This document shows, piece by piece, positions 7,701-60,540 of a stretch of 64,000 bases of DNA. Each line of letters opens with the position of its first letter. Position 1 is the stretch's first letter. A program made the position numbers and the translations under genes. The notes below the pieces were generated by a model. It had not been told where the DNA came from. It saw nothing but the letters and a program-made list of their open reading frames with translations, and did no database searches. This DNA is from a bacterium (candidate division B38) B3_B38 (GTDB lineage: Bacteria > Acidobacteriota > B3-B38 > Guanabaribacteriales > B3-B38): positions 3,541 to 67,540 of the forward strand of contig NJBL01000002.1 in assembly GCA_005223145.1 (NCBI GenBank), read 5' to 3'.

Positions 7701-7892
7701 CCGGTAGAAGATTTAGGGGTGAGTTTTCATTATTCGTTATTTGACCGTATAGTATTGAGGTAAGGTATAGATTTTAAAGGGCAAGCTGTTTTCCTCTTTA
7801 GTATCTTTTGCTTCTCTTTTCAGCTAAGATTCTCTACCTATATTCAAATGTAAGGCAAAATCTATCGGTAATTTCCCTGTCAAAAGGAGGTC

Positions 7893-10238: not shown

Positions 10239-10243
10239 TCCGC

Positions 10244-12343: not shown

Positions 12344-12463
12344 TTTTAAACCTCCCTGCAATAAAGGTTTCAATCTATGGGGATAAATACTTTGTAATTC
12401 ACCACTCCTTCAGTTTGAGGACTTAAACGGCAAGTCTGCTGTCACATCTACCTTTTAAGATAT

Positions 12464-13744: not shown

Positions 13745-14103
13745 TGGAATCTCACCCGTTATATTTTTAAATTTCGGATGATGTTCCTGGGCTTTGCGAA
13801 GCTGACGCAGGCAGTGTGGGCGTAGGGAGTGAGCCGCTAAGCCAGGATTATCTGTCATTTGCCACAAAGTTACGACTCCTTACCTCGTAGCGCACTTACA
13901 AGTCCAGCCAATACAGCGCCAAAGAGGGCTACTTTAAACGCAGTGCACCAAGATATTGACCCTGCTATCAAGATTTGCTTAACAGCTCTCTTATATGGCT
14001 TTAAGATTTATGACCTAATTATCTGCTTCTAAAGCTATTTTCGATTCCCACGGTATCGCCACTCGGGCTTTTTCAATCCGTTGCGGGAATTTTCGCTGGC
14101 TGG

Positions 14104-26668: not shown

Positions 26669-27016
26669 ATGGAAGCCAATATAAGATACCAGGAAAATGT
26701 GGTCATTGTAGACCTGAAAGGAAAACTGGTCTGGGGGAGGGAGAGACTCGTTTTAAAGGAGACTATCACCCAGCTGCTGGAAGCGGAGAAAAAAAATATC
26801 CTTCTTAACCTCTCCGAGGTAAAATATATGGACAGCAGTGGCATCGGGGAGCTGGTATCCAGCTATCGAGCGGTGAAACAGGCTGGAGGGCGGTTGAAAA
26901 TTGTCCATCTGAGCAACAGAATCTATACCACCCTGACCATTATGAGGTTATTGCCGATTTTTGAAGTCTTCTCAGATGAAAAGGAAGCGGTAAAGAGCTT
27001 CTCCACTGGAGCTTAA
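26669..27016 (+). CDS. STAS-domain anti-sigma-factor antagonist (SpoIIAA/RsbV-like)
   Basis: STAS pattern VVIVDLKG...LNLSEVKYMDSSGIGELVS with the phosphorylatable Ser in a DSSG context. Confidence 0.7.
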   Translation: MEANIRYQENVVIVDLKGKLVWGRERLVLKETITQLLEAEKKNILLNLSEVKYMDSSGIGELVSSYRAVKQAGGRLKIVHLSNRIYTTLTIMRLLPIFEVFSDEKEAVKSFSTGA

Positions 27017-32524: not shown

Positions 32525-33619
32525 TCACAGAAGAAAGCCATATACAATGTGTTCTAAATCATTGTAATTATTTGAGATGATTTTAAACTTTTCTAAATTT
32601 AATTCCATAGCCATTGATTTCAGCCTTTTTACATCAGACTCTCGAGGGTTTAGCTTTACCTCATATGCCTCTTTTTTATCCAGAATAATGTCAATTTCTA
32701 CCCCATTTTTTCTTTGATAATAATTGAACTCTCCCTTAGGCCTAAGATTCTGAAAAATACTGTTTTCGAAAAGGCTTCCCATATCCAAGTTAGCAAAATG
32801 ATTGGCTATACCGGTATCACATAGGTAAACCTTAGGCATCTTTCTAATCTCAGAATTTCTTCCTTTACTAAATGGTCTTATTGTTTTTATGAAGTATATA
32901 CCCTCCAAGAAAGAAATATATTCGCTCAATGTTGGACGAGAAATACCCAATTCTCTTGAGATATTTTGAATATCTAATTTAGAACCAAGCCGTTGCATCA
33001 AAAGTAACATTAAATCTCGAATAGCTTCGTTTCTTCGAAAATCCCCTAACTGTAGAATTTCCAGTTGAAAAAAGGAATTGAAGATTTCTTCTAATGCTTT
33101 TTTCTTCTCTTGAGCATTAGATTTTAAAACTACTCCTGGAAATCCGCCAAATTTAATATATTCATCATATAAAAGAGAAATTTCGTCAAAGATCGGTTGG
33201 GTGATATGGCGCGCATTCTCTGGTATTCTTAAAGAGCTTCCTTTGAATAAGAGACATTCACTAAAACATAAAGGAAAAAGCTCAAAAATATATTTCCTTC
33301 CAGAAAGCGATTCTGTGAAAAGGTTTTTTAAGTAGAAACTGGCTGAACCGGTCAAGAAGAATTTTACTTGATAATGGTCAATAAAATATTTAACGACTGA
33401 AGGTAGATTTTTTACAAACTGTATCTCGTCCAAAAATATGAACGGCTTACTCGTAAAATCAATTCCTAAACTCTCAAACGAGAACTTGATTCGCTCATAA
33501 TTACGCTCTTCAAAATATTTTCTATTTAATGGATTTTCTAAATCTAAAAAAACTTTATTTTTCGAGGCAATTTGACTATCAATAAATTTGAGAAGCGTCG
33601 TTTTACCAGTCCTCCTCAT
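32525..33619 (-). CDS. AAA+ ATPase of the COG1373/DUF4143 family; N-terminus lacks an ATG (possible pseudogene or ATA start)
   Basis: The track ORF begins inside the Walker A (GMRRTGKTTLL). The frame stays open 27 codons further upstream (…IVKPRLIFNTIKAYLDSPEAIIVTG), with ATA at the position where family members have Met. The gene lies in a low-GC segment. Confidence 0.55.
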   Translation of the reverse strand: MRRTGKTTLLKFIDSQIASKNKVFLDLENPLNRKYFEERNYERIKFSFESLGIDFTSKPFIFLDEIQFVKNLPSVVKYFIDHYQVKFFLTGSASFYLKNLFTESLSGRKYIFELFPLCFSECLLFKGSSLRIPENARHITQPIFDEISLLYDEYIKFGGFPGVVLKSNAQEKKKALEEIFNSFFQLEILQLGDFRRNEAIRDLMLLLMQRLGSKLDIQNISRELGISRPTLSEYISFLEGIYFIKTIRPFSKGRNSEIRKMPKVYLCDTGIANHFANLDMGSLFENSIFQNLRPKGEFNYYQRKNGVEIDIILDKKEAYEVKLNPRESDVKRLKSMAMELNLEKFKIISNNYNDLEHIVYGFLL

Positions 33620-44695: not shown

Positions 44696-45148
44696 ATGAA
44701 GGAAAGAATAGACTACGAAAAGATTCTTCGCTCTTCACCCACGGTAACCATCAAAGAATTGAAAGAGTGCTATCCTGTCATCAGGAGGTTGCTTCGGCGT
44801 CTCCAGAAGAGATTAAAGCTTTCTGATGATGAGGTGTACAACTTACAGTTAGCTGTAGGAGAAATCTGCGCTAACGCCATCGAGCATGGGAATAAATGTG
44901 CCCCGGACAAGTCGGTGCACGTCTCCTATGCCTTTCATCAGCATAGATTAATTTTTCAGGTGGAAGACGAAGGCGAAGGGTTCAATCCCGAAGACCTCCC
45001 TGACCCCACTAAGCCGGAAAACCTTCTGAAGAAGAGGGGGCGGGGCATATTTTTAGCCTGCTCGTTGGTGGATGAGATAATCTTCCAAGATAAAGGAAGA
45101 AGGGTCATCCTGGTGAAAAAGCTGACCCAATCGTCATCCCCTGCCTAA
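44696..45148 (+). CDS. anti-sigma regulatory factor, GHKL Ser/Thr kinase (SpoIIAB/RsbW-like)
   Basis: N-box EICANAIEHGNK and G1-box VEDEGEGF. 150 aa. Confidence 0.6.
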   Translation: MKERIDYEKILRSSPTVTIKELKECYPVIRRLLRRLQKRLKLSDDEVYNLQLAVGEICANAIEHGNKCAPDKSVHVSYAFHQHRLIFQVEDEGEGFNPEDLPDPTKPENLLKKRGRGIFLACSLVDEIIFQDKGRRVILVKKLTQSSSPA

Positions 45149-45175: not shown

Positions 45176-46120
45176 TCAGGGCGTGCTAACCTTTATGATG
45201 GATGAGGTGGAAGAAGTAGCATCATCATCATCGGTGACCGTCAGGGTAACCGTCTTATCTCCTGATGTGCTGTAGGGATGGGTAACTATTTTGCCCATAC
45301 CCGTGAGAGCATCTCCAAATTCCCAGCTGTATTTAACGATAGTCCCATCAGGATCGTAAGAAGAGGAGGCATTGAATGTCACCGATTCGCCCACTTTGGG
45401 ATCGGAAGGAGAATAGGTAAAGTTAGCTGTAGGGAAGATGTTAGGTGGAGTAATCACCTTAATAGCTATAGAAGAAATGATAGCCCCGGCGGTGGCGGTC
45501 ACCGTCACCGTATCCACATCCTTATCCCAACTGCCAAGCGTGAGGGTATCGAAAGCCTCCCCACTCTCATTGGTGAGGACAATCTGCCCACCAGAATCGA
45601 GGGCACCGGCATCGGTGGAGAAGGTTATCGCCGCATTAGCAATGGTCTGAGCATTCTCATCAAAGGCAATCGCCGTAATGGAACTGGTGGCTCCCTCCTC
45701 AAAAGAAATGGAAGCCGGCGTGGCGGTGAGGGAGATGAAGGCGATAGCCGCCCCAATCTGGACTATAATGGGCTCTGCAGTGCCCACCACACCTGAACTA
45801 ACCGTTATCTCCGCAATGCCAACCTCAATCCCGCTGGTGAGGATGGAGCGAGCCATACCATCGGTGGTAGTCACCCGCCCATCAATGGTGCCCATGGTGG
45901 TGGTCAGATAAACCACTGTCCCATCGGGCACTGGATAGCCATCACCTCTGGTGATGATGACGGTGATTACCGCGTTGTCTCCCCCAGGGTTAATGACCGC
46001 GGGATTGACACTGATGGTCATAATGGCATCCTCTGGTGCTACAGGGTCGACCTTCTGACAAGACGTTATCAGCCCTATGCAAAGCCCGATGGAGGCGAGA
46101 GTTAACAATTTTTTAATCAT
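45176..46120 (-). CDS. lipoprotein with Ig-like (Big) repeats and C-terminal PKD domain
   Basis: Lipobox LITSC. Thr/Val-rich beta-sandwich repeats. C-terminal YSWEFGDA...GDKTVTLTVTDDDD is a PKD signature. Confidence 0.55.
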   Translation of the reverse strand: MIKKLLTLASIGLCIGLITSCQKVDPVAPEDAIMTISVNPAVINPGGDNAVITVIITRGDGYPVPDGTVVYLTTTMGTIDGRVTTTDGMARSILTSGIEVGIAEITVSSGVVGTAEPIIVQIGAAIAFISLTATPASISFEEGATSSITAIAFDENAQTIANAAITFSTDAGALDSGGQIVLTNESGEAFDTLTLGSWDKDVDTVTVTATAGAIISSIAIKVITPPNIFPTANFTYSPSDPKVGESVTFNASSSYDPDGTIVKYSWEFGDALTGMGKIVTHPYSTSGDKTVTLTVTDDDDATSSTSSIIKVSTP

Positions 46121-46167
46121 AGGCTATACCCTTTTTAGTCAGAATAAAGGGTTTTCTTTCCTCCTTA

Positions 46168-46578
46168 CTACCATTCCCGGTAATAGGTTCCATCTAAAGC
46201 CTGCTCATAAGAGCCACTGTGAATATCCCATATGCCTGGTTCTTCGTCAGGCTCTAATTTCTCCCAGTCAATATAGACTTCCACCCAAGTTTCAGCCGAT
46301 TCGGTAAATGGGTCCACCGGTATACTCCGCAAATAGCCCTCAGTGACCAGATCTTCCAGCGTGTAGGGGTATCTCTCCTTATCAACATAGAACTGGTCTA
46401 TGCAGTCCCTCATATAAAACAGGTCCTTCTTCAACACCGCCTCTTTTGCTCGGATATGGGAGTAGCGAAAGGTCGGCAGGGCTAAGGTGGCTAAAATCCC
46501 TATCATAGTAATAACTATCATTAACTCAATCAGGGTAAAGCCTTTCTGCTTTGCCGAAATAGCTCGCATCTTATTCAC
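46168..46578 (-). CDS. type IV pilin-like / T2SS GspG-like pseudopilin
   Basis: Prepilin leader and methylation site KGFTLIELMIVITMIGIL. C-terminal ...LDGTYYREW. Confidence 0.7.
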   Translation of the reverse strand: MNKMRAISAKQKGFTLIELMIVITMIGILATLALPTFRYSHIRAKEAVLKKDLFYMRDCIDQFYVDKERYPYTLEDLVTEGYLRSIPVDPFTESAETWVEVYIDWEKLEPDEEPGIWDIHSGSYEQALDGTYYREW

Positions 46579-46590
46579 TCTGTTATTTTC

Positions 46591-47079
46591 TTACCAATCT
46601 TTATATTTAGTGCCATCCAAGGCAATTCCTTCGCTTTTAGAGTAAACATCGAAGACATTCTCCCCTCCCCAAGAGGTGGAATCAAAATCATCCTGATAGG
46701 AACGCATTTCCCAATCGGTGGAGTTAGTCATCGGGTCACGGGGTATGCGGCGCAAAAATTTCTTCATTACATCCAGTTTACCCACCTCTTCCACGCCCTC
46801 GACCAGAGCCTGGAGATCGGGGGGATAGCCTTCGGAGCCGAATTCTGCCGTAATCTGCCCCAGGTCAACCATTTTTTTATATTCGTCGATTGCCCTTCTT
46901 ATAATCCTCAGATTCTCCCGCAGCTCAACCTCTTTAGCCCTCTTGATGGCGATTCGGGCTACCGGCAGGATGGATGCAGCTAAAACAGATATGATGGCTA
47001 CTACCACCATTAGCTCTGCCAGGGTAAACGCCGATGTAGAGCCTCGCATATTGATTTTGGAAGCCAGAACCTTTATCAT
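46591..47079 (-). CDS. type IV pilin-like / T2SS GspG-like pseudopilin (second copy)
   Basis: SAFTLAELMVVVAIISVLA prepilin N-terminus. C-terminal ...LDGTKYKDW is paralogous to the neighbouring pseudopilin. Confidence 0.7.
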   Translation of the reverse strand: MIKVLASKINMRGSTSAFTLAELMVVVAIISVLAASILPVARIAIKRAKEVELRENLRIIRRAIDEYKKMVDLGQITAEFGSEGYPPDLQALVEGVEEVGKLDVMKKFLRRIPRDPMTNSTDWEMRSYQDDFDSTSWGGENVFDVYSKSEGIALDGTKYKDW

Positions 47080-47088
47080 CCTTTCTCC

Positions 47089-49353
47089 CTATTGGACCTG
47101 AATCTTCGCCGGCACAAAATTAGCGGGGAGAGTGTTAGAGGTGGCATCGCGCACACTGTTATTGGAGAAGACTATATCCGTGCTCCCTGCACCGACTGCC
47201 TTGAAAACCACAGTGCACAATATCCCCGACCCATCCACTCCGGTATCCTTCCCTAACCTGGCGAGACTCACCCTCAGCTGTCCTCCCTTATTGTCATAAT
47301 CCCTGACGAAGCTCACCTGGGCACCATCCTTTCCCAATAAGGGTCCCATAGTTACCTCTACTATCTGCAGAACATTGGGGTCAAAGCCCAGATTGAAGGG
47401 TACATGCCCCACATTACGAGCGTTGTCGAGATTGATGTTGACCGAAAATCTTTCTTCCCGAAAGACGATAAGGCTGGCTGGGGTTATGGAAACCTCAGCG
47501 GGAGTGAGTTCTTCACCCATCTCTTCTGGTTCTGGCTCTGCTTCTTCTTCCTCCGGTGGCGACTCCTCGGCTGGAGGGGTTTCCTCCTCTGTCTCCTTTT
47601 TAGCGGGAGCTGGCTTCTCCTCAGGCGGCTTCTCCCCTGCTGGCTTCATCTCTTCCATTACTGCTCTCTCCTCCAATTCGGCAATGGGTGGCGCCTCTCT
47701 ATAAACCATAGCCCTTTCAGTCCCCGCCCAAATAGCCCTCAGGTCTTCCTCGGTAATGTTGGGGGTTTTGATGATGTGAGGGGTCATGGTAAGAACGATG
47801 TCGGTTTCTACATTCTGGGAAAGCTCTTTGGAGAAAATTTTGCCTAATATAGGTATATCGCTCAACCCCGGGATACCAGAAATGGACTTGCGCTCCTCGA
47901 ACCTTATCAAACCTGCCAGCAGGTTGGTCTCCCCATCCTTCAACCTTATTGTTGATTCTATCATCCGGCTGGTGAAGGTTGGCTGCCCTTCCAGCATTTC
48001 GGCCAGAATCGATTCTATCTTCACTGTGAGTGCGAGGGTGATCTCGTTGTTATGGTGCACTCGGGGGGTCAAATCTATCTGAATCCCTACTCGGCGATAC
48101 TGGTAGGAGTGAATAGGGGTCACCACTCCGATAGTCTGTGCCGGGGTGATGGTGGTCACCCGGATGGGGATTTCCTCTCCGATGAACAGAGAAGCCTTTT
48201 CCCCTTCGGTGATTCTGAGCTGAGGCTTGGCCACGAGGCGGGCGTCACTGGTCTGCTTCAGCAGGGTATAAGTAAAAGAGGGAATAGTCAGGAACCAATC
48301 GGCTTGACTGATATAGGGGATTTGAGAAAGACGGATACCGGTCTCCTCCTGAGCCAGGCCCTGAGTAATGCTGTAACTGCTAAGCAACAAGCCGTATTCG
48401 TTGAGCTTGGTTCGGTTAACCTCTAATATCTCAAGGTCAACTATGACCTCCCCTTTCGATTTATCAGCTCGGTTAATTAACTTTTCGGCAAGGGCAATGA
48501 TATCGGCTGAATCGCGAATGGTGACGGAATTGAGCTGAGGATCCGCGGAAATGTTCCTAATCCCCAGAACGGTGCGGAGCCCCTGTAAGACACTTTTGAC
48601 TTCGGCGTTAGACAGGTAAAAGGTCTGGATCACCAGTTCAGTATACTCCCTTCTCTTGGCCGGGTTGTCGGGGACTACAACTATAGTGGTTGGATTGACG
48701 ATCTTGTAAAAATGACCATTAGTGGTTACCAGAGAATCTAACGCATCCAGGAAGGAGACATTGGCCACCTCAAAGCTCATCTTGCGGTCTCTGATGGTGG
48801 GGTCTAACAGGATGTTTATTCCCGAAAGCTTGGCTAAAGCGGTGTAGACTTCCTTCATGTTGTTGCTGGGGAAGCTAAGGGTAATCTTTTCCGGGGATTT
48901 GGGGCTCAAGTAGACAGGAGGAGCCTTCTCAGTCTCTACCTTCTCTTTGAGCATCTCAATCTCGGTCTTCTCTCTAAGCCTCTCAGCTTCCTCCTCTACC
49001 TTGGCTCGGGCTTTATCCATTTCGATGAGGGCAAGCTGATTGGTGGAGTCTAACTCTATCGCCAACCGAAACTCCACCATTGCTTGCTCGATGTTCTCCT
49101 CTTCCATCATCTGTTTTGCCTTGCTCAAATGCACCTTTGATGCCTGACGACGAGCAGTTTCCAGGCTCAGGCGGTAAGCGAGGTTGTCGGGGTTCAATTT
49201 CATGGCTTCGAAGTAATAGAGCACCGCCTGGTCCCAATCGCCCTCTCTCTCTGCCTGCACTCCCCTCTTATAGGTTTTGGTAGCTGCACAGCCGGCTAAA
49301 AAGAAGAGAAGGAGAACGATTACCAACCTTTTTATTAATAACCCGTTTTTCAC
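47089..49353 (-). CDS. pilQ: secretin (PilQ/GspD family) with N-terminal lipoprotein-TPR module and C-terminal Pro/Glu-rich linker plus cohesin-like domain
   Basis: Lipobox LAGC followed by TPR-like helices. Secretin C-domain ending ...DIVLTMTPHIIKTP. Then the PEEKPAPAKKETEEETPPAEESPPEEEEAEPEPEE linker. The final 140 aa (NLGFDPNVLQIVEVTMGPLL...GSGILCTVVFKAVGAGSTDIVF...AKIQV) match the type-I cohesin beta-sandwich pattern. Confidence 0.8.
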   Translation of the reverse strand: MKNGLLIKRLVIVLLLFFLAGCAATKTYKRGVQAEREGDWDQAVLYYFEAMKLNPDNLAYRLSLETARRQASKVHLSKAKQMMEEENIEQAMVEFRLAIELDSTNQLALIEMDKARAKVEEEAERLREKTEIEMLKEKVETEKAPPVYLSPKSPEKITLSFPSNNMKEVYTALAKLSGINILLDPTIRDRKMSFEVANVSFLDALDSLVTTNGHFYKIVNPTTIVVVPDNPAKRREYTELVIQTFYLSNAEVKSVLQGLRTVLGIRNISADPQLNSVTIRDSADIIALAEKLINRADKSKGEVIVDLEILEVNRTKLNEYGLLLSSYSITQGLAQEETGIRLSQIPYISQADWFLTIPSFTYTLLKQTSDARLVAKPQLRITEGEKASLFIGEEIPIRVTTITPAQTIGVVTPIHSYQYRRVGIQIDLTPRVHHNNEITLALTVKIESILAEMLEGQPTFTSRMIESTIRLKDGETNLLAGLIRFEERKSISGIPGLSDIPILGKIFSKELSQNVETDIVLTMTPHIIKTPNITEEDLRAIWAGTERAMVYREAPPIAELEERAVMEEMKPAGEKPPEEKPAPAKKETEEETPPAEESPPEEEEAEPEPEEMGEELTPAEVSITPASLIVFREERFSVNINLDNARNVGHVPFNLGFDPNVLQIVEVTMGPLLGKDGAQVSFVRDYDNKGGQLRVSLARLGKDTGVDGSGILCTVVFKAVGAGSTDIVFSNNSVRDATSNTLPANFVPAKIQVQ

Positions 49354-49394
49354 TCTTCCTCCTTAAATGACATAATCCATACCGATTATACAAA

Positions 49395-50024
49395 TCAGAA
49401 GTTGCCATTCACTAAGGGGATTTTCTGCTTCAAGCTGGTATTTACTACCCCCAGCTCAATATATTGATAATCTATCTCAAGAATGGTGAATCTCTCCTCT
49501 ATGATGTCCCCCTTGATTCCTACTAAGATTTTGTCCCCTTTTTTGAGGGTAGCTATCATCTGGCTATCCTTTCGGGCAAATCCGAGGAATTTAAATCCAG
49601 CTAACTCCTCGAGCGCGGGGGGAGAACCGGGAGAGGAAGCCTGCTGTTCAGCAGTGGTCTTATCTGCGACCACCCCCCCTTCAGTCTTTCTTGGAGCGTC
49701 TGTTTGCTGCGTCTGCGATGAGGATCGTCTTCTTGTAGAAGCTGGTGCGGCAGCCTTAGCTGCCCCGAACCTGAACAGATTCCTCCCCAAAACAGAGTAA
49801 GCGGGCATCTGCTGGTTGAGGAGCTTCAGGTTTATCTCTGGCAGAAGCGATTTCCCCTGAAGTGAGGAAAGGCGTGCTTCCCCTTCAGATGGAGCCTCTG
49901 AAGTGATAGGGATGCTGGCTATCTCTCCGCTCCTTCCACCTATCCTTCTCAGTTGGTAGGCCACGAGGGCAAAGAACACCACTAACAGAATTAATAACAA
50001 AATCTTTTTCTGCCGTCGCTCCAT
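49395..50024 (-). CDS. PilP-like pilus assembly protein (membrane-anchored, low-complexity linker, C-terminal beta domain)
   Basis: Position between pilO and the secretin. N-terminal TM anchor, Ala/Ser/Thr/Gln-rich linker, C-terminal KGDKILVGIKGDIIEERFTILEIDYQYIEL. Confidence 0.45.
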   Translation of the reverse strand: MERRQKKILLLILLVVFFALVAYQLRRIGGRSGEIASIPITSEAPSEGEARLSSLQGKSLLPEINLKLLNQQMPAYSVLGRNLFRFGAAKAAAPASTRRRSSSQTQQTDAPRKTEGGVVADKTTAEQQASSPGSPPALEELAGFKFLGFARKDSQMIATLKKGDKILVGIKGDIIEERFTILEIDYQYIELGVVNTSLKQKIPLVNGNF

Positions 50025-50071
50025 CTGGGAAACCTCTTTTTATATAATATCAGTCTCCTTGCTCTATCTAT

Positions 50072-50620
50072 TTATAGCAGAGAGAAATAGGTAGACAGCT
50101 TGATGTTGAGTTTGAGATTACCCCCTGTTTCCTCTGGATTAGAAAGCTCTACACGGTCGATAATGAGGAAATATTTGGAGTTTTCAATCTGGTTGACGAA
50201 GCGTCTCAGATTGGCGTAGCTTCCCCGCAGAGGGAAGGTGATTTCAAATAAAATTACTTTATCTTCCTCAATAATTTCGTGGTTATATTGAATGTTCTGC
50301 TTTTCCACCTGAAATCGCTTGGCTAACCTCTCCACCTCGCCAAGTATATCAACCAACCCTTCCTCTTTTTGGCTCAATGTCTTGGAGTAGAAGTTCTCCA
50401 CCTGCCGGCGGATTTCCTTAAGCCTCTTGTCATTCTCTTTTCTTTGAGCCAGCTCCTGCTTTCCTTTCTCTATCCTCATACCAAGGGCAGCAGCTTTACT
50501 ATCCAGTTTTTTGAGCCATCTCTCCCGGGGCAGGGTGAAAATAGTCAGAATAAGGATATTAGCTACCATAGCGACCAGAACCGGTATCACCAACCATTTA
50601 CGATGCCAGAGAAGTTCCAT
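50072..50620 (-). CDS. pilO: PilO-like inner-membrane pilus assembly protein
   Basis: Single TM helix, coiled coil, and C-terminal domain. Positioned after pilN. Confidence 0.6.
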   Translation of the reverse strand: MELLWHRKWLVIPVLVAMVANILILTIFTLPRERWLKKLDSKAAALGMRIEKGKQELAQRKENDKRLKEIRRQVENFYSKTLSQKEEGLVDILGEVERLAKRFQVEKQNIQYNHEIIEEDKVILFEITFPLRGSYANLRRFVNQIENSKYFLIIDRVELSNPEETGGNLKLNIKLSTYFSLL

Positions 50621-50664
50621 TGACTCCCTTTATCAGAACCTATAGCAGAAGTTTCTATAAATGG

Positions 50665-51243
50665 TCATTCGGAAACCTTAACTTTCGGAAAATAGTCCAA
50701 CTGGAGCTTAAAGTCTATCCTCTTAATCCCCTGATGTTCCTTTTCACCTTCTGTGTTTGGGTAGACAGAGGAGAACACTGGTGATTGCTCCAGGTTTTCA
50801 ATAAACTTTAATATATTTTGATAACCATCCCCTATTAAGCGAAGGTTGATTTTGATCCTCCCACCCTCCACTGTAGGGTTGATGGAGACCATCATAATCC
50901 GTGGTGGCATAATATTCTCGAAGTGATTGAAGAGCTCGGTCCAGGAGAGTTTCCGCCAGCTGATGATCCGATTAATGAAGTCAGTATAACTTCTTAGCTC
51001 CTCGACTTTCCGAGGTTCAATGGCGCGCTCGTAATAGCTTAACGCGTGCCCCTGGCGTCGCAAAGCCGCTTCCTTTAGCAGAATCTGCTCCTTTATGTCC
51101 CGCGAGCTATCCACATAATGCACATAGTTCAACCAGTTATAATAGGATAATCCAACCACTACCAACACTGCCATGGTGAAAATAAAATAGAATAGAGCCA
51201 TATTTCTAAAGGGACGAGAAGCTAAATTTATGGATATTCGCAT
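50665..51243 (-). CDS. pilN: PilN-like pilus assembly protein
   Basis: N-terminal MRISINLASRPFRN (the conserved INLLP-like PilM-binding peptide) followed by a TM helix. Confidence 0.65.
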   Translation of the reverse strand: MRISINLASRPFRNMALFYFIFTMAVLVVVGLSYYNWLNYVHYVDSSRDIKEQILLKEAALRRQGHALSYYERAIEPRKVEELRSYTDFINRIISWRKLSWTELFNHFENIMPPRIMMVSINPTVEGGRIKINLRLIGDGYQNILKFIENLEQSPVFSSVYPNTEGEKEHQGIKRIDFKLQLDYFPKVKVSE

Positions 51244-51247
51244 AGGC

Positions 51248-52261
51248 TCAGCCCCTCACCAGTAAACCAATGGTGGCTGCCAACCTTGAGAGCTCTCCTT
51301 TATCTATAGAGACTCCTTCATCCAGTTTCATTGCCCCCCAGGGATTGATGGTTTCCACCTGGAGATCAAAGTTTTCCTGAATCTGGCTTTTAAGCTCTGT
51401 CAAACGGGGACTAATTCCACCCACATAGACCATTTTAAGCCCATTCCCCCCTAAGCGCTCTTTATAATAGATATAAGATGAATTAAGCTCCCGGAGGGCA
51501 ATTTGAAGGATTGATTTTCCTGAAAAGCCAGCTCCTAATTCTTTGGTGCGATAGAAGATAAGCTCCTCCCCTCGGAAGATCACCATAGAGATATATGCCT
51601 CAGAGAAGTTGACCACCATGCTCTCAGAACTATCATTATGCCCTCTTGGTATAGACCAATGGCAGAAATTGACCAGGCCAAAGGAAGAAGGAATAACCAC
51701 ACCGGGAACAACCCCCCAGGGCTCAAACAACCTCTCAAACTGAGCCCGTACATCCCTCTTAATAATAGCTGCCAGAAGCTTTGGAGAACCATCCCTGCTC
51801 ACCATAGGTTGAAAGCCTATCATAGCCTCTTCTATCCTGAAAGGTAAGGTCTTCTTCAGCTTCCATTGGATGAGCTTCACGGTCTCCCCTTCCCTATGGG
51901 GTAAGCGTTGAAGGTTATCGAGGAGAACCACCTTTACTACGTTGTCCGGAATAAGAAGGTAGATTTTTTTTATCTTTGCCTGATCATTGCTCAGGATGGA
52001 AGCGATCTTCTGTTCTACCACGGGTGGAATGACCATATTGGAGCCGAGCATAGAAGCCTGTACCCCTTCCGGGGAAAGCTCCTCCAGAGAGTAATCAGCC
52101 AGAAAGTAGCTCCCTTTGTGGCGGGCAACCCTCGCCCATCCCAGCCATCTCTGGGATATCTCTATCCCTGTAAGGGGGGCTTTGGAGGGGAATCTCACCA
52201 CATCAGCTATAGACTTAAAAGGATTCATTTCTAACAAAGGATTTAGCCTCTTATTCCACAA
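51248..52261 (-). CDS. pilM: PilM-like actin-fold pilus assembly ATPase
   Basis: Actin-like fold of about 330 aa. C-terminal ...LSRLAATIGLLVRG. The start may instead be the internal Met at 52228. Confidence 0.7.
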   Translation of the reverse strand: MWNKRLNPLLEMNPFKSIADVVRFPSKAPLTGIEISQRWLGWARVARHKGSYFLADYSLEELSPEGVQASMLGSNMVIPPVVEQKIASILSNDQAKIKKIYLLIPDNVVKVVLLDNLQRLPHREGETVKLIQWKLKKTLPFRIEEAMIGFQPMVSRDGSPKLLAAIIKRDVRAQFERLFEPWGVVPGVVIPSSFGLVNFCHWSIPRGHNDSSESMVVNFSEAYISMVIFRGEELIFYRTKELGAGFSGKSILQIALRELNSSYIYYKERLGGNGLKMVYVGGISPRLTELKSQIQENFDLQVETINPWGAMKLDEGVSIDKGELSRLAATIGLLVRG

Positions 52262-53903
52262 AGGTGACCCGATTTATCTCTTGCAGGGTTGCAATTCCAT
52301 TGAGCACCTTCTCCAGAGCCGACTCCCGAAGAAACCTCATCCCCTCTGCTTTTGCCTGCTTTTTAACCTCTGCCCCTGCCCTTTTTTCCAGAATCATAGC
52401 CCTGATGGTATCAGACATCTCCATAAATTCCATAATAGCAGTTCTTCCCCTGAAGCTGGTCCCTCCACAATCGATGCACCCTTTCCCCTCGTAAAAAGTG
52501 AAATCGCGGTATTTCTCTACCTCCAACCCCGACTCCTCCAGTAGCTGGGGAGAGGCTTTAACCGGAGTCTTGCAGGAAGGGCAGATAATCCTTACGAGCC
52601 TCTGGGCTAAAACGCAGTTAACCGCAGAGACGAAGTTATAAGGCTCTATTCCCATATGGAGCATCCTTCCCATAACATCGATGACATTGTTCGCATGGAC
52701 AGTGGTGAAGACCAGGTGCCCAGTGAGAGCTGATTGGATGGCTATTTGAGCGGTTTCGGGGTCTCTGATTTCTCCTACCATAATTTTATCGGGGTCGTGC
52801 CTTAATATAGAACGCAGCCCCCGGGCGAAGGTGAGCCCTTTCTTTTCGTTGACCGGCACCTGGGTAATTCCCTCAATCTGGTACTCCACCGGATCTTCGA
52901 TGGTTATAATCTTATCCTCCTCCCGCTTGATTTCTGAAAGCGCAGCATATAGGGTGGTGGTCTTGCCGCTCCCGGTGGGACCGGTCACCAGAAGCATCCC
53001 ATAGGGTTCGGATATATATTTCCTTATCTTCTTCAGCTCCCGGGGGGAGAAACCGAGAACATCGAGCCTGAGCTCAGCAAACTCCTTATTGATGGACTCT
53101 TTGTCCAAAATCCTGATAACGGCATCCTCTCCGAAGATGTTGGGCATAATGGAGACCCGAAAATCGATGGTCCTCCCCTTATATTTGAGTTTGAACCTTC
53201 CATCCTGGGGGATGCGCTTCTCAGCTATGTCCAGCTCGGACATAACCTTTATGCGGGAGATTATGGTCCCGCTGTGCTTATTATCAATGGGCTCCATCGC
53301 CTGTAACAGAGAGCCATCGATCCGATATTTTATGAGCACCTCATCGTCCTTGCTCTCAACATGAATATCACTGGCTCTTCTCTCAATAGCATTGAAGATA
53401 ATGGAATCGACCAGCCTGATCATAGGGCTGGTATCCTGGGTCAGCTTATCGATGGAGAGGCCCTCTTGCTCCCCTTCTTCCTCAGAAACCAGCTGAAGAC
53501 GGAACCCTTCGGTTGCTTCCTCCAGAATCCGCTGCGAGGACTCGCTCTTCTTCAATATCTCCTGGATGGCACTTTTGCAGCCCACCTTAACCTCTATGTG
53601 GATTCCCAGCAAGAGCTCTATCTCATCGACCATAAGGATATCCGAAGGGTCTGCCATGGCGATGGTAAGGGAAGCTTCATTCTTCTCCAGAGGGATAAAA
53701 TTGTACTTCATCATGAGCTGAACCGGTATTCTCTGAAAGAGGTCGTGGTCAACTATGAAATCTGTAAGGTCGATGTATTCGAGACGTAGCTTCTGGGCTA
53801 ATTGCCTCGCTTCTTCCTCCTCGGCTATTTTCGTCTCATTGAAGAATGAGTACCCCTTTGCTCCTTTTGGCAAGTTTTTGTTTTCCTCTTCCATAATGCT
53901 CAA
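52251..53903 (-). CDS. pilB: type IV pilus / T2SS assembly ATPase (GspE/PilB)
   Basis: Walker A LLVTGPTGSGKTTTL. Asp and His boxes. Tetracysteine CPSCK...CIDCGG. Confidence 0.85.
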   Translation of the reverse strand: MSIMEEENKNLPKGAKGYSFFNETKIAEEEEARQLAQKLRLEYIDLTDFIVDHDLFQRIPVQLMMKYNFIPLEKNEASLTIAMADPSDILMVDEIELLLGIHIEVKVGCKSAIQEILKKSESSQRILEEATEGFRLQLVSEEEGEQEGLSIDKLTQDTSPMIRLVDSIIFNAIERRASDIHVESKDDEVLIKYRIDGSLLQAMEPIDNKHSGTIISRIKVMSELDIAEKRIPQDGRFKLKYKGRTIDFRVSIMPNIFGEDAVIRILDKESINKEFAELRLDVLGFSPRELKKIRKYISEPYGMLLVTGPTGSGKTTTLYAALSEIKREEDKIITIEDPVEYQIEGITQVPVNEKKGLTFARGLRSILRHDPDKIMVGEIRDPETAQIAIQSALTGHLVFTTVHANNVIDVMGRMLHMGIEPYNFVSAVNCVLAQRLVRIICPSCKTPVKASPQLLEESGLEVEKYRDFTFYEGKGCIDCGGTSFRGRTAIMEFMEMSDTIRAMILEKRAGAEVKKQAKAEGMRFLRESALEKVLNGIATLQEINRVTFVE

Positions 53904-53940
53904 TCTCCAGTAAGGATGATAAATAAACCTCTGCGCCTGT

Positions 53941-55146
53941 TCACCTCACTGCCGATATCACCCTGAACAGGGGGAGATACATCGACAGAAGCATCCCGGC
54001 AACAACTAATCCCATTCCCACAAGGAGAACTGGCTCCAGCAAGGATATAAGAGAATTGAGGTTATTATCAATCTCCTCGTCGTAGAAATCGGATATATTG
54101 CTCAACATCTCAGAAAGGGAGCCGGTCTCCTCGCCTACCTGTATCATCTCCAGGGTCATTTCGGTCATCAGACCTGTCTTCTCTAAAGAGTCGGACAAAC
54201 TCTCCCCTTCTACTACCTTTTCCACCACATTGCTTACTTCACGGGCGACCAGCTGGTTGCTCACCGATTGAGTGGCAACCTGCAAAGAAGGGACCAATGG
54301 TATTCCTCCAGAAAGCATGGTCGCCAGGCTACGGGTCAGCTGGGAGATAGAATACTTCTTCCAGATACGACCAAACAGCGGGAGCTTGATCCCTACCCGG
54401 CTGAGTAATATCCCCCCCTTCTCCGTTCTCTTCCATAATTGGAAGAAGGCTAAAGCAAGGACGATTATCAAAGCAATAAAGACGATATTCTGCTTTATAA
54501 ACAGGGATACGCGGATCAAAGTTAGGGTCAGAAGGGGCAATTGGGCGTTGAATTCGGCGTAAAACTGGGAAAATTTTGGAAAGACATAGGTAAGCAATAT
54601 GACTACCAGACCGATAGAAAGAGCGATAAGAACCAGGGGATAGGAGATAGATGAAAGCACTTTCTTGCGTAGAGAAGATAGTATACGCACATATCTGGTA
54701 TAGTGTCTCAGCATCCCCTCTAAATCACCGCTCTTCTCCCCTGCCACCAGAGAGGCAATATATATGCGAGGGAAAGCCCCGCCCTGCATATCAAAAGCAT
54801 CCGACAGGGAGAAGCCAGATTTGACCTTTTCCCTCACATCTTGCAAGATGGTCTTAAACCTCGACTTTGGACGCCGCTTGATTAATATATCCAGGGATTG
54901 AAGCACAGGGAGCCCCGCACGGATGAGGGTGGCTAACTCCTGATTGAATATCAGAAAGTCGTCTATCTTGATCTTTTTTCTCCAAAAAGGGAGACCCCCA
55001 GCCAGCGATAGCTTCCTCTTTATGTGGAAGATATAAAAATCCCCCTGCTCCAGCTGTCGACGGAGCACTTCCTCATTAGGAGCGCTGAAAATCTGCTCCA
55101 CTATCTCCCCGGCAGAGTTGCCCACCTTGCACCTATAAAATGCCAT
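53941..55146 (-). CDS. pilC: type IV pilus / T2SS platform protein (GspF/PilC)
   Basis: Two T2SSF repeats with three TM segments. Length 401 aa. Confidence 0.8.
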   Translation of the reverse strand: MAFYRCKVGNSAGEIVEQIFSAPNEEVLRRQLEQGDFYIFHIKRKLSLAGGLPFWRKKIKIDDFLIFNQELATLIRAGLPVLQSLDILIKRRPKSRFKTILQDVREKVKSGFSLSDAFDMQGGAFPRIYIASLVAGEKSGDLEGMLRHYTRYVRILSSLRKKVLSSISYPLVLIALSIGLVVILLTYVFPKFSQFYAEFNAQLPLLTLTLIRVSLFIKQNIVFIALIIVLALAFFQLWKRTEKGGILLSRVGIKLPLFGRIWKKYSISQLTRSLATMLSGGIPLVPSLQVATQSVSNQLVAREVSNVVEKVVEGESLSDSLEKTGLMTEMTLEMIQVGEETGSLSEMLSNISDFYDEEIDNNLNSLISLLEPVLLVGMGLVVAGMLLSMYLPLFRVISAVR

Positions 55147-55156
55147 CTTTCTATGC

Positions 55157-55876
55157 TCACCTCTGAACTTTGGCTGTAATGACCATCAGCAGAGCGCGAT
55201 CGCTCATCTCGCTTTTAGATGCCCCCACAATGATGGTCTGCTGGTTAATCAGGTTCAAGGCAGAACTGAAGAGCTTTTTATATCGGTACTTGCCATTAGG
55301 AAGAAGCTCACTCTTAAACAGCGTGAAGTTCCGCAACTTAATAACCCCCGGACCATCGTCAATAAACTCTCCATAGAAGCTTATAAAATATCGATTGCCC
55401 GCCTGATGCCGGAAATTCTCCCCCTCCACTGCCTTCAGCAAAACCCTGTCCACCAATTCATAGTGGTTGAAGTTCAGAACTCCGCTCAGCCTATTGGCCA
55501 CCTCTTCCAGCTCCACGGAGACCTTGCCTGGCTGAGCGGCTTTGCTGGCTTCAATGAAGTGGATGGCAATAATGAGCCGTTTCGGCGGAAGGTCAAAAGC
55601 CCTTATCACCTTCTCTATTTTCTCGAGGTTGTAAGGGAAGTCTTTGACCACCAATTGCTTCTGCTGCGGCCTTATCAGAATAGACCCCTGGCTGCTGACA
55701 AATGGTCTGATCTTGAGAGTAGCCTCATTGAGGTCTCTAAACCTCAAGGTAAAGGTTTTCTCTTTCAACTTCTGGTCAGAAGCCTCCTGATAACAAAAGG
55801 AGGTAGCAGTAAAACATAGCACCATAATAAGGGAGAGCATTAACCCTATCTCTCCTCTCTGACAAAAATTTCTCAT
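55157..55876 (-). CDS. secreted protein with Secretin_N (NolW-like) domain
   Basis: Signal peptide. LRFRDLNEATLKIRPFVSSQGSILIRPQQKQLVVKDFPYNLEKIEKVIRAFDLPPKRLIIAIHFIEAS follows the Secretin_N pattern (…v.vD.r.N.Liv….i…I..lD.pp.qv.I…iiE.). RBS GGGGGA. Confidence 0.5.
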   Translation of the reverse strand: MRNFCQRGEIGLMLSLIMVLCFTATSFCYQEASDQKLKEKTFTLRFRDLNEATLKIRPFVSSQGSILIRPQQKQLVVKDFPYNLEKIEKVIRAFDLPPKRLIIAIHFIEASKAAQPGKVSVELEEVANRLSGVLNFNHYELVDRVLLKAVEGENFRHQAGNRYFISFYGEFIDDGPGVIKLRNFTLFKSELLPNGKYRYKKLFSSALNLINQQTIIVGASKSEMSDRALLMVITAKVQR

Positions 55877-55895
55877 ATCATCCCCCTTCTGACAT

Positions 55896-56438
55896 CTAAA
55901 GGTCAATTTCTGAGCCGAATATTAAGATAAGATTTGTTTTGTCCTCCAATAGGAGGTTGTAAACTCGGAGGTTAGGGCTTTCTACCTTCTCGAGGGTGGG
56001 ATAACGGTTTTCCAGCTCCTCAGCTTTCTCCGGAGATACCACCTCTCCCCTTCCCTTCCAGGGCTCGGCTATAAGGGAAGGCTCCTCGCCCTTCTCGGCT
56101 TGCTGGAAATGTAACCAGGTAAAGGTAGCTAATAAGGCAATAAGGAGCCCGGCTGCCACGCTGGCAATAACTCTATAGCTCCACCTGAAACGGTAAACCG
56201 GCGCCCTCTCCCACTCAATGGCCGCCTTTATCCGGGACCAGAACCCCTCCCAGAAATATTCCTCCTTTTCCTGCAGGGTTAACAAAGAGAAAAGCTTGGA
56301 AGGCTCATTTAAGCAGACCGCCTTATAACATCTGGGGCAGCGAGCTAAATGCCTCTCTATTTCTCTGGTCTCCTCCTCGGAGAGCTCATATCTGAGGTAA
56401 GAGTCCATTAAAACAGCAATCTCTTTGCAAACTTTCAT
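55896..56438 (-). CDS. zinc-finger (zf-HC2) anti-sigma factor, single-pass membrane
   Basis: HLARCPRCYKAVC motif plus the TM helix VIASVAAGLLIALLATFTWL. Overlaps the sigma gene by 4 nt. Confidence 0.6.
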   Translation of the reverse strand: MKVCKEIAVLMDSYLRYELSEEETREIERHLARCPRCYKAVCLNEPSKLFSLLTLQEKEEYFWEGFWSRIKAAIEWERAPVYRFRWSYRVIASVAAGLLIALLATFTWLHFQQAEKGEEPSLIAEPWKGRGEVVSPEKAEELENRYPTLEKVESPNLRVYNLLLEDKTNLILIFGSEIDL

Positions 56439-57046
56439 TTTCTATTTATCCAGGTTATATATTCCGGGAAATGGCGTTCAATCTGCTCTCGCAAGAACTT
56501 CTTAGCCAGCCAAAGGTTATTCCTTATGGTCGATTGTGTTGCTCTCATAATCTTCGCTATCTCCCGGATAGAAAAGCCATGGATCTCCTTGAGCACAAAA
56601 GCCGCCCGCTGCTTGGGAGGAAGACGGGAGGCGAGACAATTGAAAATCGCCTGCAGCTCCTTGATGAGAAGCTTCTTCTCGGCATCCGGCTGGATGGAGG
56701 GAAGCTCCTCAGCCATCCCCTCCACCGCAGATACCCCACCCGCACCTCTCTTCTTATTGCGAAGATAATCGATGCTCCCATTCACCACCATCCTGTAAAG
56801 CCAGGTATTAAATTTTCTCCCCCGCTGAAACCTCCCTATGCGCTGCCACAGCTTGATAAAAGTTTCCTGGGTAATATCCAGAGCACCATCTTCATCGCCG
56901 GTTATCTGATATGCAATCCAGAATATCCGCTGTCGCTTCCGCTCTACCAGCTCTTCAAACGCTTGCCAATCCCCTCTTTGGCACCTCTTGATGAGAAGCT
57001 CTTCCTCCTCGCTACTGACTTCCCAGCGCTTGTCAGGCTTATCCAC
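56435..57046 (-). CDS. ECF-subfamily RNA polymerase sigma-70 factor
   Basis: Region 2 (FEELVERKRQRIFWIAYQITGDEDGALDITQETFIKLW) and region 4 (FSIREIAKIMRATQSTIRNNLWLAKK). Confidence 0.8.
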   Translation of the reverse strand: MDKPDKRWEVSSEEEELLIKRCQRGDWQAFEELVERKRQRIFWIAYQITGDEDGALDITQETFIKLWQRIGRFQRGRKFNTWLYRMVVNGSIDYLRNKKRGAGGVSAVEGMAEELPSIQPDAEKKLLIKELQAIFNCLASRLPPKQRAAFVLKEIHGFSIREIAKIMRATQSTIRNNLWLAKKFLREQIERHFPEYITWINRK

Positions 57047-57107: not shown

Positions 57108-57298
57108 AAAATATAGCACATACCACAGGCTTCGTCAACATCCCTCTCTTTGAATTGTAATACATAATTGGAGGGAATTTAACTATTTTAGTATTGTTAG
57201 ATAATATCCCTTATGATAAGATAAAAAACATTAATTATAAGAAAGACCGCTAAATGAATAAGATGGGTCAACCCTGGTAGTCGGAAAGGTTAATTACT

Positions 57299-59241: not shown

Positions 59242-60540
59242 ATGAAAACTATTAGATGGGTAGCGCTTATCTGCCTGCTCCTGCTTTGGATATTATGTTC
59301 GTCGTCGCCTATATGCTCTTATAGTAGCCCTGCTGAAAGGAAAATAGAGCAATCCAACCGCGTACCCGTTGACAAAGAGCTGTATCTTTTTATCCTCAAT
59401 CCCCAGATGCAAATGCCGGTGGGTGCAGTTGACCTGACCACCCTCCACCAGATAAGCTACCGCTACGAGAGCCGACTGTTTAACCTTTTGCCCATTAAGG
59501 AGAAAAACCTTGCCGGAAAGCTCTGGGGTGTCTCTGTCCGCCTGGGAAAAAGCATCCTTATAGACCTGCCTGTGGCCAGGTGGCTTGCCGTGGTGCAGCA
59601 CGAGGTCTTCGGGCATGGAGCCCGGGTGAGGGAGTTTAGAGGGAAAGCCTCCTATACCCTTTACCACCCCTGGAGCAGCAAGAGGGCCTTCACCAGCTTC
59701 CGCCTGCAGGATATCACCATCAGCGACCTCATCCAGTTCACCGGAGGGGGAATAGAGAGCAATCAGGTAATGGCATGGGAGATGGAGCGGCGTATGTATG
59801 GAGACTACCCCCTCCACTGCTATGACTGGCTATCCTTTGCCATAAATAAATATGTAGTGAACAACTACATATACCACACTCCTGATCCTCGACTTTACCC
59901 CCAGGTTTTTAACGAGGAATACAAAGAAGGGGGTGATATAGCCCACTTCCTGGGAGAGATGAACTATAAATATCACGGGCGTTACGGGATCTTCCCTGAG
60001 GAAGTAGACCCGCTGGTGGCTGATAACTATCGAAAAATCAAACGAGAAGCAATCTGGAATCTCCTCGACCCCGCCCTATGGCTGGGGATATACTATTACG
60101 GCAGATATATTCTCACCGGAAAGGAGAGGTTTACCCTCCCTATGCTCCCCCTGTGGGGTATGCGGCTAATGGGAGGCACTCGTTACAACCTCACCCCTAT
60201 TGGAGGGGAAAGATACCTCGACATATACATTAAAAAAGGAGGGCATCACTTCAACTTTTATCTCCGAAGGGGGTCCTTTGAGGGAATGAGCTGGTATGGG
60301 TGGGGATGTGGGGCTGACAGATTGTGGAGATATGATAACTCTCATCTGGGATTGAGGTTTGATTGGTGGAACCAGTTAGAGACCGGCGGAGGAGGTAATC
60401 TGGAAGGAGAGCTTCATCACTATATAACCCCTGATGTCGGCATCACATTACAGGGGGGTTACAAAACCCAGGGTTACCTAATGGGTAAGGCTGCCGATTC
60501 CGGGTTTTACACCTTTTTTGGTGCCCTGGTCAGATTTTAA
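59242..60540 (+). CDS. secreted hypothetical protein, outer-membrane beta-barrel-like, with HEVFGH motif
   Basis: Signal peptide. Tyr/Trp/Gly-rich. C-terminal ...FFGALVRF ends in Phe as outer-membrane proteins do. VQHEVFGHGARV is a possible metal site. Confidence 0.4.
   Translation: MKTIRWVALICLLLLWILCSSSPICSYSSPAERKIEQSNRVPVDKELYLFILNPQMQMPVGAVDLTTLHQISYRYESRLFNLLPIKEKNLAGKLWGVSVRLGKSILIDLPVARWLAVVQHEVFGHGARVREFRGKASYTLYHPWSSKRAFTSFRLQDITISDLIQFTGGGIESNQVMAWEMERRMYGDYPLHCYDWLSFAINKYVVNNYIYHTPDPRLYPQVFNEEYKEGGDIAHFLGEMNYKYHGRYGIFPEEVDPLVADNYRKIKREAIWNLLDPALWLGIYYYGRYILTGKERFTLPMLPLWGMRLMGGTRYNLTPIGGERYLDIYIKKGGHHFNFYLRRGSFEGMSWYGWGCGADRLWRYDNSHLGLRFDWWNQLETGGGGNLEGELHHYITPDVGITLQGGYKTQGYLMGKAADSGFYTFFGALVRF

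Follow-up and report, generated by a model that had tools for sequence, protein, structure and literature searches.

What kind of machine is built when genes recalling those of a type IVa pilus (T4aP) and of a type II secretion system (T2SS) stand together behind a sigma factor of their own? The question is raised by a 12-kb locus of the bacterium B3_B38 (candidate division B38, Acidobacteriota), on contig NJBL01000002.1 of assembly GCA_005223145.1. In what follows, the window designates the whole stretch of this contig that was analysed, 64,000 nucleotides in length, and the locus occupies its minus strand from 57046 to 45176. As argued below, the locus belongs to a distinct, Acidobacteriota-wide subtype of type IV filament machines. 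Three marks set this subtype apart: a built-in regulation by an extracytoplasmic function (ECF) sigma factor, a small protein that is most likely a miniature secretin, and a lipid-anchored secretin (liposecretin) that bears a cohesin domain.

A first-pass annotation had described thirteen same-strand genes, running in order from an ECF sigma factor gene to a lipoprotein gene. The listing of the open reading frames (ORFs) and the scans of the 13 locus ORFs against Pfam and NCBIfam, on which the family assignments are based, agree with this order and recover thirteen co-directional minus-strand ORFs at the same coordinates. Junctions between genes range from -11 to +47 nt. At the head of the locus, the sigma and anti-sigma genes overlap by 4 nt; the next gaps measure 19 nt, ahead of the mini-secretin gene, and 10 nt, ahead of pilC. 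Terminator-like hairpins are no more frequent in the scanned region than in shuffled sequence. The locus is one operon of 13 genes, and a single transcript would cover its whole length.

To place this operon among its relatives, one genome per species was scanned with an alignment of the large secretin. At least 589 stretches matched, and the best 80 of them were used as related loci. All 80 come from Acidobacteriota or from metagenome-assembled genomes, the nearest being 90% identical, and they include Thermoanaerobaculia, Vicinamibacteraceae, Holophagales, Polarisedimenticolia and 'Candidatus Multivorans'. Complete genomes (for example OY969474, OZ250177 and OZ242167) and cultured genera such as Thermoanaerobaculum and Vicinamibacter are among the carriers. 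More broadly, the secretin has over 3,250 homologues, of which the named ones are from Acidobacteriota and most share a TPR + Secretin_N + Secretin + Cohesin architecture. At E ≤ 1e-10, the pilin search gave 1,422 cluster representatives; the N-terminal helix alone may account for many of these matches. Around secretin homologues that are only 49% and 43% identical, the gene order is the same, sigma factor included. When the 13 window proteins were compared with the ORFs of the related loci by BLASTP, the order from sigma to pilin 2 was found to be kept in at least 55 Acidobacteriota species genomes. This order (sigma, anti-sigma, mini-secretin, pilC, pilB, pilM, pilN, pilO, PilP-position gene, secretin, pilin 1, pilin 2) is fixed wherever the flank is long enough, except in three loci, from which the first three genes are missing. 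Owing to their divergence, the anti-sigma and PilP-position genes escape BLASTP, yet positional orthologues with conserved termini are found at both places. In distant loci, median identity to the window proteins is highest for PilB (67%); the pilins rank second (52% for pilin 1, 49% for pilin 2), followed by the secretin and PilC (40% each), the sigma factor (35%) and PilM, PilN and PilO (22-29%). Thus, the operon is a conserved system of the Acidobacteriota as a whole. No paper or curated family dealing with it was found in the literature on secretins of Acidobacteria and Aminicenantes, cohesin, ECF factors, T4aP and T2SS, and the operon is not described in the ECF reclassification paper or in the TXSScan paper.

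Is the machine under the control of the sigma factor that precedes it? The first gene (56435..57046; this and all following operon features are on the minus strand) encodes an ECF sigma factor of 203 aa, with regions 2 and 4 both present (Sigma70_r2, 4e-19; Sigma70_r4_2, 1e-12; Sigma70_ECF) and a TIGR02937 score of 106 bits for a cut-off of 43. The second gene (55896..56438) encodes a membrane-spanning anti-sigma factor of 180 aa, of the ZAS (zinc-associated anti-sigma) type. Its zf-HC2 domain (1.9e-8; 34.7 bits for a cut-off of 22) carries the zinc motif H-x3-C-x2-C, read as HLARCPRC. Its positional orthologues (loci L003 to L083 in our numbering) have a conserved extracytoplasmic C-terminal tail, '..RVYQ...VVMIVDExLDV', the window protein reading '..RVYNLLLEDKTNLILIFGSEIDL'; this tail might act as a strand for docking or as a signal for a protease. 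The coupling of the sigma gene to the machine genes is kept, across several classes, in 55 of the 58 related loci having enough upstream flank. Furthermore, the sigma, anti-sigma and mini-secretin genes behave as an all-or-none module: 55 loci have all three, three have none, and no locus has a partial set. Where the module is absent (L012, L023 and L040), pilC adjoins the divergent waaA-like gene.

A promoter-like motif accompanies the module. The family consensus, T(A/G)GACG-N16-(C)CGTA(T), precedes the sigma gene in 60 of 62 loci and is missing from the three loci that have no sigma gene. Alignment of the regions upstream of sigma shows a fixed spacing and a variable spacer sequence. In a de novo count of all dyads made of a 5-mer, a gap and a 4-mer, registers of this motif came top: of the 59 distinct upstream regions, 49 contain TAGAC/TGGAC-N17-CGTA, and in shuffled sequences no dyad exceeded 3-5 regions. 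The 1.54 Mb of related loci contain 77 matches, 55 of them directly upstream of the sigma gene; the remainder are scattered singletons, fewer than the 44 expected by chance. In the 64-kb window, the single match (TAGATA-N16-CGTA, 57089-57064) lies 17 nt ahead of the sigma start codon, where it would act as an autoregulated operon promoter. The form of the motif points to an ECF promoter, probably bound by the cognate sigma factor, and it resembles the SigW-type promoter TGAAAC-N16-CGTA. Because the motif is unique upstream of sigma and is not repeated in the operon, it supports an autoregulated, dedicated ECF control. Hence, the search for ECF-type promoters proposed along with the first-pass annotation succeeded as to the promoter type, the GGAAC-like -35 element then expected being replaced by T(A/G)GAC. 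Internal ECF promoters, within the operon or in its flanks, were also considered and were rejected, the corresponding matches being scattered, non-conserved and below shuffle expectation.

A second, predicted promoter lies further upstream in the window. It is sigma-70-like (TTGACG-17-(TG)cTATATT, 57110..57138), agrees with the consensus at 10 of 12 positions, has an extended -10 and is the best of its type in the scanned region. At the equivalent place, about 50 related loci (for example L015, L021 and L051) have a near-invariant 'CAGTATAAT' box, separated from the ECF promoter downstream by 7-180 nt. In 1.54 Mb, 'AGTATAAT' is present just 54 times, almost always upstream of the sigma gene. 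Read on the opposite strand, the 'CAGTATAAT' box gives TATACT near the start of the divergent waaA-like gene, so that it may serve the sigma operon, the waaA-like gene or both. The simplest reading of this arrangement would be a basal transcription from the housekeeping promoter combined with a positive autoregulation of the whole operon, gated by the anti-sigma factor. Dedicated ECF control, as had been claimed at first, is supported by the tight packing of the first four genes, by their coupling in related loci and by a promoter located solely upstream of sigma; very probably, the operon is activated by its own sigma factor.

The third gene of the module (55157..55876) had been annotated as encoding a Secretin_N protein. 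Its start is most likely ATG 55876, because the homologues are 239 aa long; one of them, 90% identical, bears the label 'Candidatus Aminicenantes bacterium'. The protein has a signal peptide and one secretin N-domain followed by a reduced, secretin-like beta core. As a single sequence, it matches Secretin_N at an E value of only 6e-3; a profile of 32 sequences matches the last N-domain and the first core strand of PilQ/GspD at 1e-11. An AlphaFold2 model reaches a pLDDT of 74 overall; the N-domain exceeds 90, and the beta region lies at 65-80. The top 32 Foldseek matches of this model in the PDB are all secretins (PilQ, InvG, XcpQ, EpsD, GspD, BfpB, f1 pIV), with query-normalised TM-scores of 0.4-0.53; for phage f1 pIV, the query- and target-normalised values are 0.48 and 0.50, respectively. 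Compared with known cores, this one falls short by about 100 residues, and the Pfam Secretin domain is not matched. Therefore, the N-domain of the original label stands, but the modelled protein is most likely a miniature secretin going beyond a bare N-domain, its core fold being predicted with moderate confidence.

What does the module drive? The inner part of the machine is mainly of the T4aP type. The platform protein (53941..55146, 401 aa; T2SSF, 3e-52) scores 298 bits with the GspF model and 279 bits with the PilC model, each under the equivalog cut-off. The assembly ATPase (52251..53903, 550 aa; T2SSE, 4e-131) is closest to PilB. In the PDB, PilB of Geobacter and Myxococcus gives 431 bits versus 361 bits for GspE, and in NCBIfam the PilB model TIGR02538 comes first with 552 bits (cut-off 676) versus 536 bits for GspE. 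Its alignment with Geobacter PilB begins at residue 66 of the latter, which means that the extreme N-terminal PilB segment is missing. A control of the ATPase by cyclic di-GMP was considered in this light: the MshEN motif, which binds this nucleotide, is located in the N-terminal stretch of canonical PilB and MshE. With this stretch lacking here, control may have moved to transcription.

The candidate alignment complex is made of four small proteins. The PilM-like actin-fold protein (51248..52261, 337 aa, start codon uncertain) matches PilM_2 (3.4e-9; 36.5 bits for a cut-off of 27). It is followed by a PilN-like bitopic protein (50665..51243, 192 aa), recognised by its conserved position and a PilN match of 4.5e-4, and by a PilO/GspM-like bitopic protein (50072..50620, 182 aa; PilO, 1.8e-6; T2SSM_b, 7e-4). 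PilM_2 and PilO pass the Pfam cut-offs and PilN remains below its own; the PilN-like protein begins with 'MRISINLASRPF', followed by a transmembrane helix. In the Pfam and NCBIfam scans, no locus protein matched GspL or GspC, and the GspM/T2SSM_b match of the PilO-like protein is weak. The fourth protein (49395..50024, 209 aa), called pilP-like in the first-pass annotation, has a transmembrane helix, a low-complexity linker and a C-terminal beta-rich domain of about 70 aa that is conserved among the positional orthologues of 55 loci. Its position and this domain agree with the initial label; no Pfam, NCBIfam or PDB sequence match backs it. Since a profile search against PDB sequences gave noise only, its identity as a PilP/GspC counterpart remains positional.

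The pilins point in another direction. Pilin 1 (46591..47079, 162 aa) and pilin 2 (46168..46578, 136 aa) both have an N_methyl signal, with processing sites ..TSA|FTLAE and ..KG|FTLIE, respectively. Gly is near-universal at position -1 of the prepilin cleavage site. The Ala found there in pilin 1 is shared by the window and its 90% identical relative; the orthologues elsewhere have Gly. Pilin 1 aligns to residues 1-98 of PulG, its 'RRIPRDP' facing 'RRLPQDPWG', and the motif 'GY(I/L)RR(L/I)P.DP' is common to the locus pilins and PulG. With the GspG model TIGR01710, pilin 1 scores 42 bits and the pilins 42-47 bits for a cut-off of 89; Pfam T2SSG is not matched. A profile of pilin 2 searched against PDB sequences matched only the N-terminal helix common to all pilins and could not discriminate, which is why comparisons by hhalign and by fold were needed. 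With hhalign, a profile of 31 pilin 2 sequences was aligned with PulG (98.7% probability, 84 columns), the match extending past the helix that all pilins share; the last 36 PulG residues used here were provisional. The AlphaFold2 model of pilin 2, built with 50 sequences from the representative search, has a mean pLDDT of 94.4. In fold, it comes closest to EpsG and PulG, the major pseudopilins of the T2SS, and the PulG pseudopilus ranks first in Foldseek (134 columns, 26% identity, probability 0.97, E 0.03). Altogether, the GspG likeness that had first been noticed is supported, by a modest margin, through these fold matches and the 'GY.RR.P.DP' motif. Upon inspection of the sequences, neither pilin has a C-terminal Cys pair.

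The last gene of the operon (45176..46120) encodes a lipoprotein of 314 aa with Ig-like and PKD domains (PKD_4, 9e-20; Invasin_D3; Big_1; lipobox ITSC), in which a possible cargo or adhesin had been seen. As a general role, this is not supported. The gene is confined to the clade of the window (L001, L004, L069), with another type of lipoprotein in L020. Elsewhere, in 54 related loci, pilin 2 is followed by the gene of a third pilin-like protein; this protein is 250-300 aa long, is paralogous to pilins 1 and 2, and contains a low-complexity insert. Because these 54 loci hold a third pilin there, the Ig/PKD lipoprotein is better regarded as a clade-specific accessory than as a conserved cargo. 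The third pilin begins with G|YNLV, hence without Glu5, and GspK is also without Glu5. A tblastn search with the third pilin of the family found none in the window.

The presumed outer-membrane gate is encoded between the alignment genes and the pilins. The secretin (47089..49353, 754 aa) is a lipoprotein comprising a lipobox, an N-terminal TPR region, N-domains (Secretin_N, 2e-9), the secretin core (Secretin, 6e-38), a Glu/Pro-rich linker and a C-terminal cohesin domain (Cohesin, 6e-14). The lipobox Cys22 is invariant among the homologues aligned. The best model is GspD TIGR02517 with 137 bits (cut-off 351), versus 102 bits for PilQ; the protein has fewer N-domains than GspD (N0-N3), and no AMIN domain was matched in the Pfam scan. 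TPR-lipoprotein pilotins such as PilF, PilW and Tgl are known, as are self-piloting liposecretins. By analogy, the lipidated TPR head of the secretin may be a built-in pilotin.

From these components, the following working mode may be envisaged. The PilB-type ATPase, the PilC platform and the alignment complex of the PilM/N/O/P type would polymerise the two GspG-type pilins. These would form a short, non-retractile endopilus (pseudopilus) under the outer-membrane gate, itself a self-piloting lipoprotein secretin with TPR and cohesin modules, accompanied by the mini-secretin. Most likely in the manner of type II secretion, the endopilus would drive a short fibre or folded proteins of the periplasm out through the secretin. 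As for regulation, a basal transcription would arise from the sigma-70-like promoter, and the membrane anti-sigma factor would keep the sigma factor inactive. Once released, the sigma factor would recognise T(A/G)GAC-N17-CGTA ahead of its own gene, leading to expression of the whole operon through positive feedback. We infer that secretion, rather than display of a surface pilus, is the function, and that a signal is sensed. A non-retractile, T2SS-like endopilus exporter is the reading that we favour, at roughly even chances of being right.

The main rival is a surface T4aP, used for adhesion, twitching or aggregation, with the peptidase, the retraction ATPase and the minor pilins encoded elsewhere and the ECF pair timing the expression. 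The ATPase nearest to PilB, the separate PilM/PilN/PilO-like set and a PilQ-like secretin with two N-domains all fit such a pilus; model T4aP organisms often have pilT and pilD at unlinked sites, and the Ig/PKD lipoprotein of the window's clade could be an adhesin. However, several features make an endopilus preferable to an exposed pilus. The pilins resemble EpsG/PulG in fold and have the GspG motif without a disulfide-bonded D-region, and they are unusually conserved for exposed major pilins, such conservation being typical of periplasmic endopilins. The secretin prefers the GspD model and has no AMIN domain, and the third pilin of most relatives is without Glu5. Moreover, no PilT, PilY1 or minor-pilin cluster is found near any of the 80 loci. 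The first-pass annotation had reported neither PilD nor PilT in the locus, and this holds on a larger scale: Pfam scans of 38 further window ORFs detected neither Peptidase_A24 nor PilT, nor any further component of type IV filaments, and neither a PilD-type motif (G.GD.K.) nor a second T2SSE ATPase occurs within 10 kb of the 80 related loci. Likewise, the minor pilin set said to be missing from the locus is indeed missing, only two pilin genes being present in the window. On balance, as judged from 64 kb of sequence, a surface pilus appears rather unlikely. A DNA-uptake pseudopilus, induced by the ECF factor under stress and resembling ComG or the PilQ-dependent systems of Thermus and Neisseria, is improbable. 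A short pseudopilus without linked PilT would suit some competence systems, and the pilins and the secretin match, weakly, the ComGC and ComGE models and the HofQ models, respectively. Nevertheless, all competence-model scores are far under their cut-offs, the scanned window ORFs contain no ComEA, ComEC or DprA, and none was recognised beside the related loci examined.

It may also be imagined that the sigma/anti-sigma pair is a mere passenger, independent of machine genes that have their own promoter. In this respect, a sigma-70-like promoter is also present upstream of the sigma gene, and the three related loci without the sigma module still carry the machine genes. Such a reading has to contend with the 4-nt overlap and the 19- and 10-nt gaps that lead from sigma to pilC with no terminator signal, with a linkage kept in 55 of 58 loci from several classes, and with the lack of any conserved second promoter motif inside the operon; it can be considered very improbable. 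Returning to the endopilus exporter, several observations weigh against it. No substrate stands out, and no conserved cargo gene flanks the operon: the clustering of flanking ORFs in the related loci, a noisy procedure owing to spurious ORFs at high GC, gave no cargo candidate and returned just the third pilin, dut on the downstream side and the waaA-like gene on the upstream side. The PilB-like ATPase and the separate PilM and PilN are T4aP traits. The set of minor pseudopilins GspH/I/J/K, thought to be needed to prime the T2SS endopilus, is absent at the locus. The lack of linked pilT and pilD does not discriminate, because T4aP loci often keep both elsewhere. Finally, the ECF promoter is deduced from conservation alone. 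With regard to substrates, a run of peptidase genes is located at 4191-13867 of the window (M20/M28, two S9 prolyl-oligopeptidase/DPP-IV types, M28, M1). Several of the encoded enzymes have signal-peptide-like N-termini and may be exported hydrolases, which makes them candidate secretion substrates.

How would the sigma factor be released? One may imagine that the sigma factor, the anti-sigma factor and the mini-secretin form a trans-envelope signalling module, by analogy with FecI/FecR/FecA, through which the machine would induce its own synthesis. The mini-secretin would sit in or under the outer membrane, alone or with the large secretin, and the state of the gate, a substrate or a surface contact would be reported to the tail of the anti-sigma factor, thereby releasing sigma. 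Taken as a whole, this proposal is speculative and we consider it rather doubtful. If true, it would amount to a new class of cell-surface signalling, one that uses a secretin fold, and it would also define an undescribed, phylum-wide type IV filament subtype in Acidobacteriota.

The Acidobacteriota are among the most abundant bacteria of soils and sediments, and their envelope machines are essentially unstudied. The operon appears to be a signature system at the level of the phylum. If it were the main export route for folded hydrolases, or for a surface fibre, it would bear on polymer degradation and attachment. It offers a clean case, open to testing, of a type IV filament machine tied to an ECF sigma factor, the promoter motif being defined. 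The secretin-like protein of 239 aa is unusual, and the liposecretin with TPR and cohesin modules is of interest for the evolution and the piloting of secretins.

Some other features of the window may be mentioned. The operon ends 27 nt (stop codon to stop codon) from the convergent gene of an RsbW-like anti-sigma kinase (HATPase_c_2; 44696-45148, plus strand), and a STAS (anti-anti-sigma-like) protein is encoded 18 kb away (26669-27016, plus strand). These two proteins may belong to a partner-switching module, which would have no relation to the ECF pair. Between 32001 and 34000, G+C drops to 0.35, compared with about 0.48 elsewhere; this stretch, which surrounds the gene of an AAA_14/DUF4143 ATPase (32525-33619, minus strand), may be an acquired island. 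Finally, a protein of 432 aa (59242-60540, plus strand) has a signal-like N-terminus and matches nothing in Pfam or NCBIfam; its gene is flanked by an MTHFR/homocysteine methyltransferase fusion gene and a MetH-like gene.

How does the machine compare with known systems? With the NCBIfam equivalogs for T4aP, T2SS, MSH and Com components, all machine proteins remain well under the cut-offs; therefore, no curated model captures the combination of T4aP and T2SS traits. The locus misses defining features of both the T4aP (pilin type, AMIN secretin) and the T2SS (GspL, GspC, GspH-K). This bears out its initial description as a hybrid of the two, with an ATPase nearest to PilB, separate PilM-, PilN- and PilO-like proteins, and a secretin scoring better on the GspD than on the PilQ model. 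With the T4aP (PilBCMNOPQ of Myxococcus, Pseudomonas and Geobacter), the locus shares a PilB-type ATPase, PilC, separate proteins of the PilM, PilN and PilO type, and a secretin with few N-domains. It differs in having GspG-like pilins and a lipidated secretin that carries TPR and cohesin modules and no AMIN domain. A transmembrane helix anchors its PilP-position protein, which is not recognisable by sequence, its ATPase is devoid of the extreme N-terminal PilB segment, and PilT, PilD and minor pilins are not linked to it. In addition, its operon includes a mini-secretin gene and the genes of an ECF sigma/anti-sigma pair. With the T2SS (GspC-M, GspO), the common points are the 'GY.RR.P.DP' motif, a fold resembling EpsG/PulG, a secretin for which GspD is the best model, the absence of a retraction ATPase at the locus and, in most family members, an extra pilin without Glu5 that recalls GspK. 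On another hand, separate PilM and PilN replace GspL, there is no GspH, GspI, GspJ or GspO, no GspC bearing a PDZ or coiled-coil domain, and the Gsp equivalog scores are far under the cut-offs.

Closer to the proposed function, the PilA-N/PilA-C filament of Geobacter is reportedly a secretory pseudopilus on a T4aP machine, as Gu et al. are said to have described in 2021. The N-terminal half of a locus pilin matches Geopilin domain 1 (E 2e-10), PDB 6VK9 being among the matches. In both cases, a T4aP-type motor and a secretin are associated with a proposed function in secretion and not in motility. However, the locus pilins are single-chain with a GspG-like head, and both the regulation and the secretin architecture differ, so that the Geobacter filament may serve as a conceptual precedent. 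As regards the control of a secretion machine, HrpL (ECF32) is an ECF sigma factor controlling a type III secretion system (PMC7826278). As in that case, the ECF sigma factor of the locus is genomically coupled to an export machine containing a secretin, which it is predicted to drive. Here, however, the target is a type IV filament machine, the sigma gene lies inside its own operon beside a ZAS-type anti-sigma gene, and the promoter, T(A/G)GAC-N17-CGTA, has no likeness to the hrp box. Lastly, FecI/FecR/FecA differs from the module in that the partner of the locus is a mini-secretin, not a TonB-dependent transducer, and that its anti-sigma factor is of the ZAS type, not of the FecR type. Nonetheless, both systems are triads of a sigma factor, a membrane anti-sigma factor and an outer-membrane protein, and the triad of the locus is gained or lost as one.

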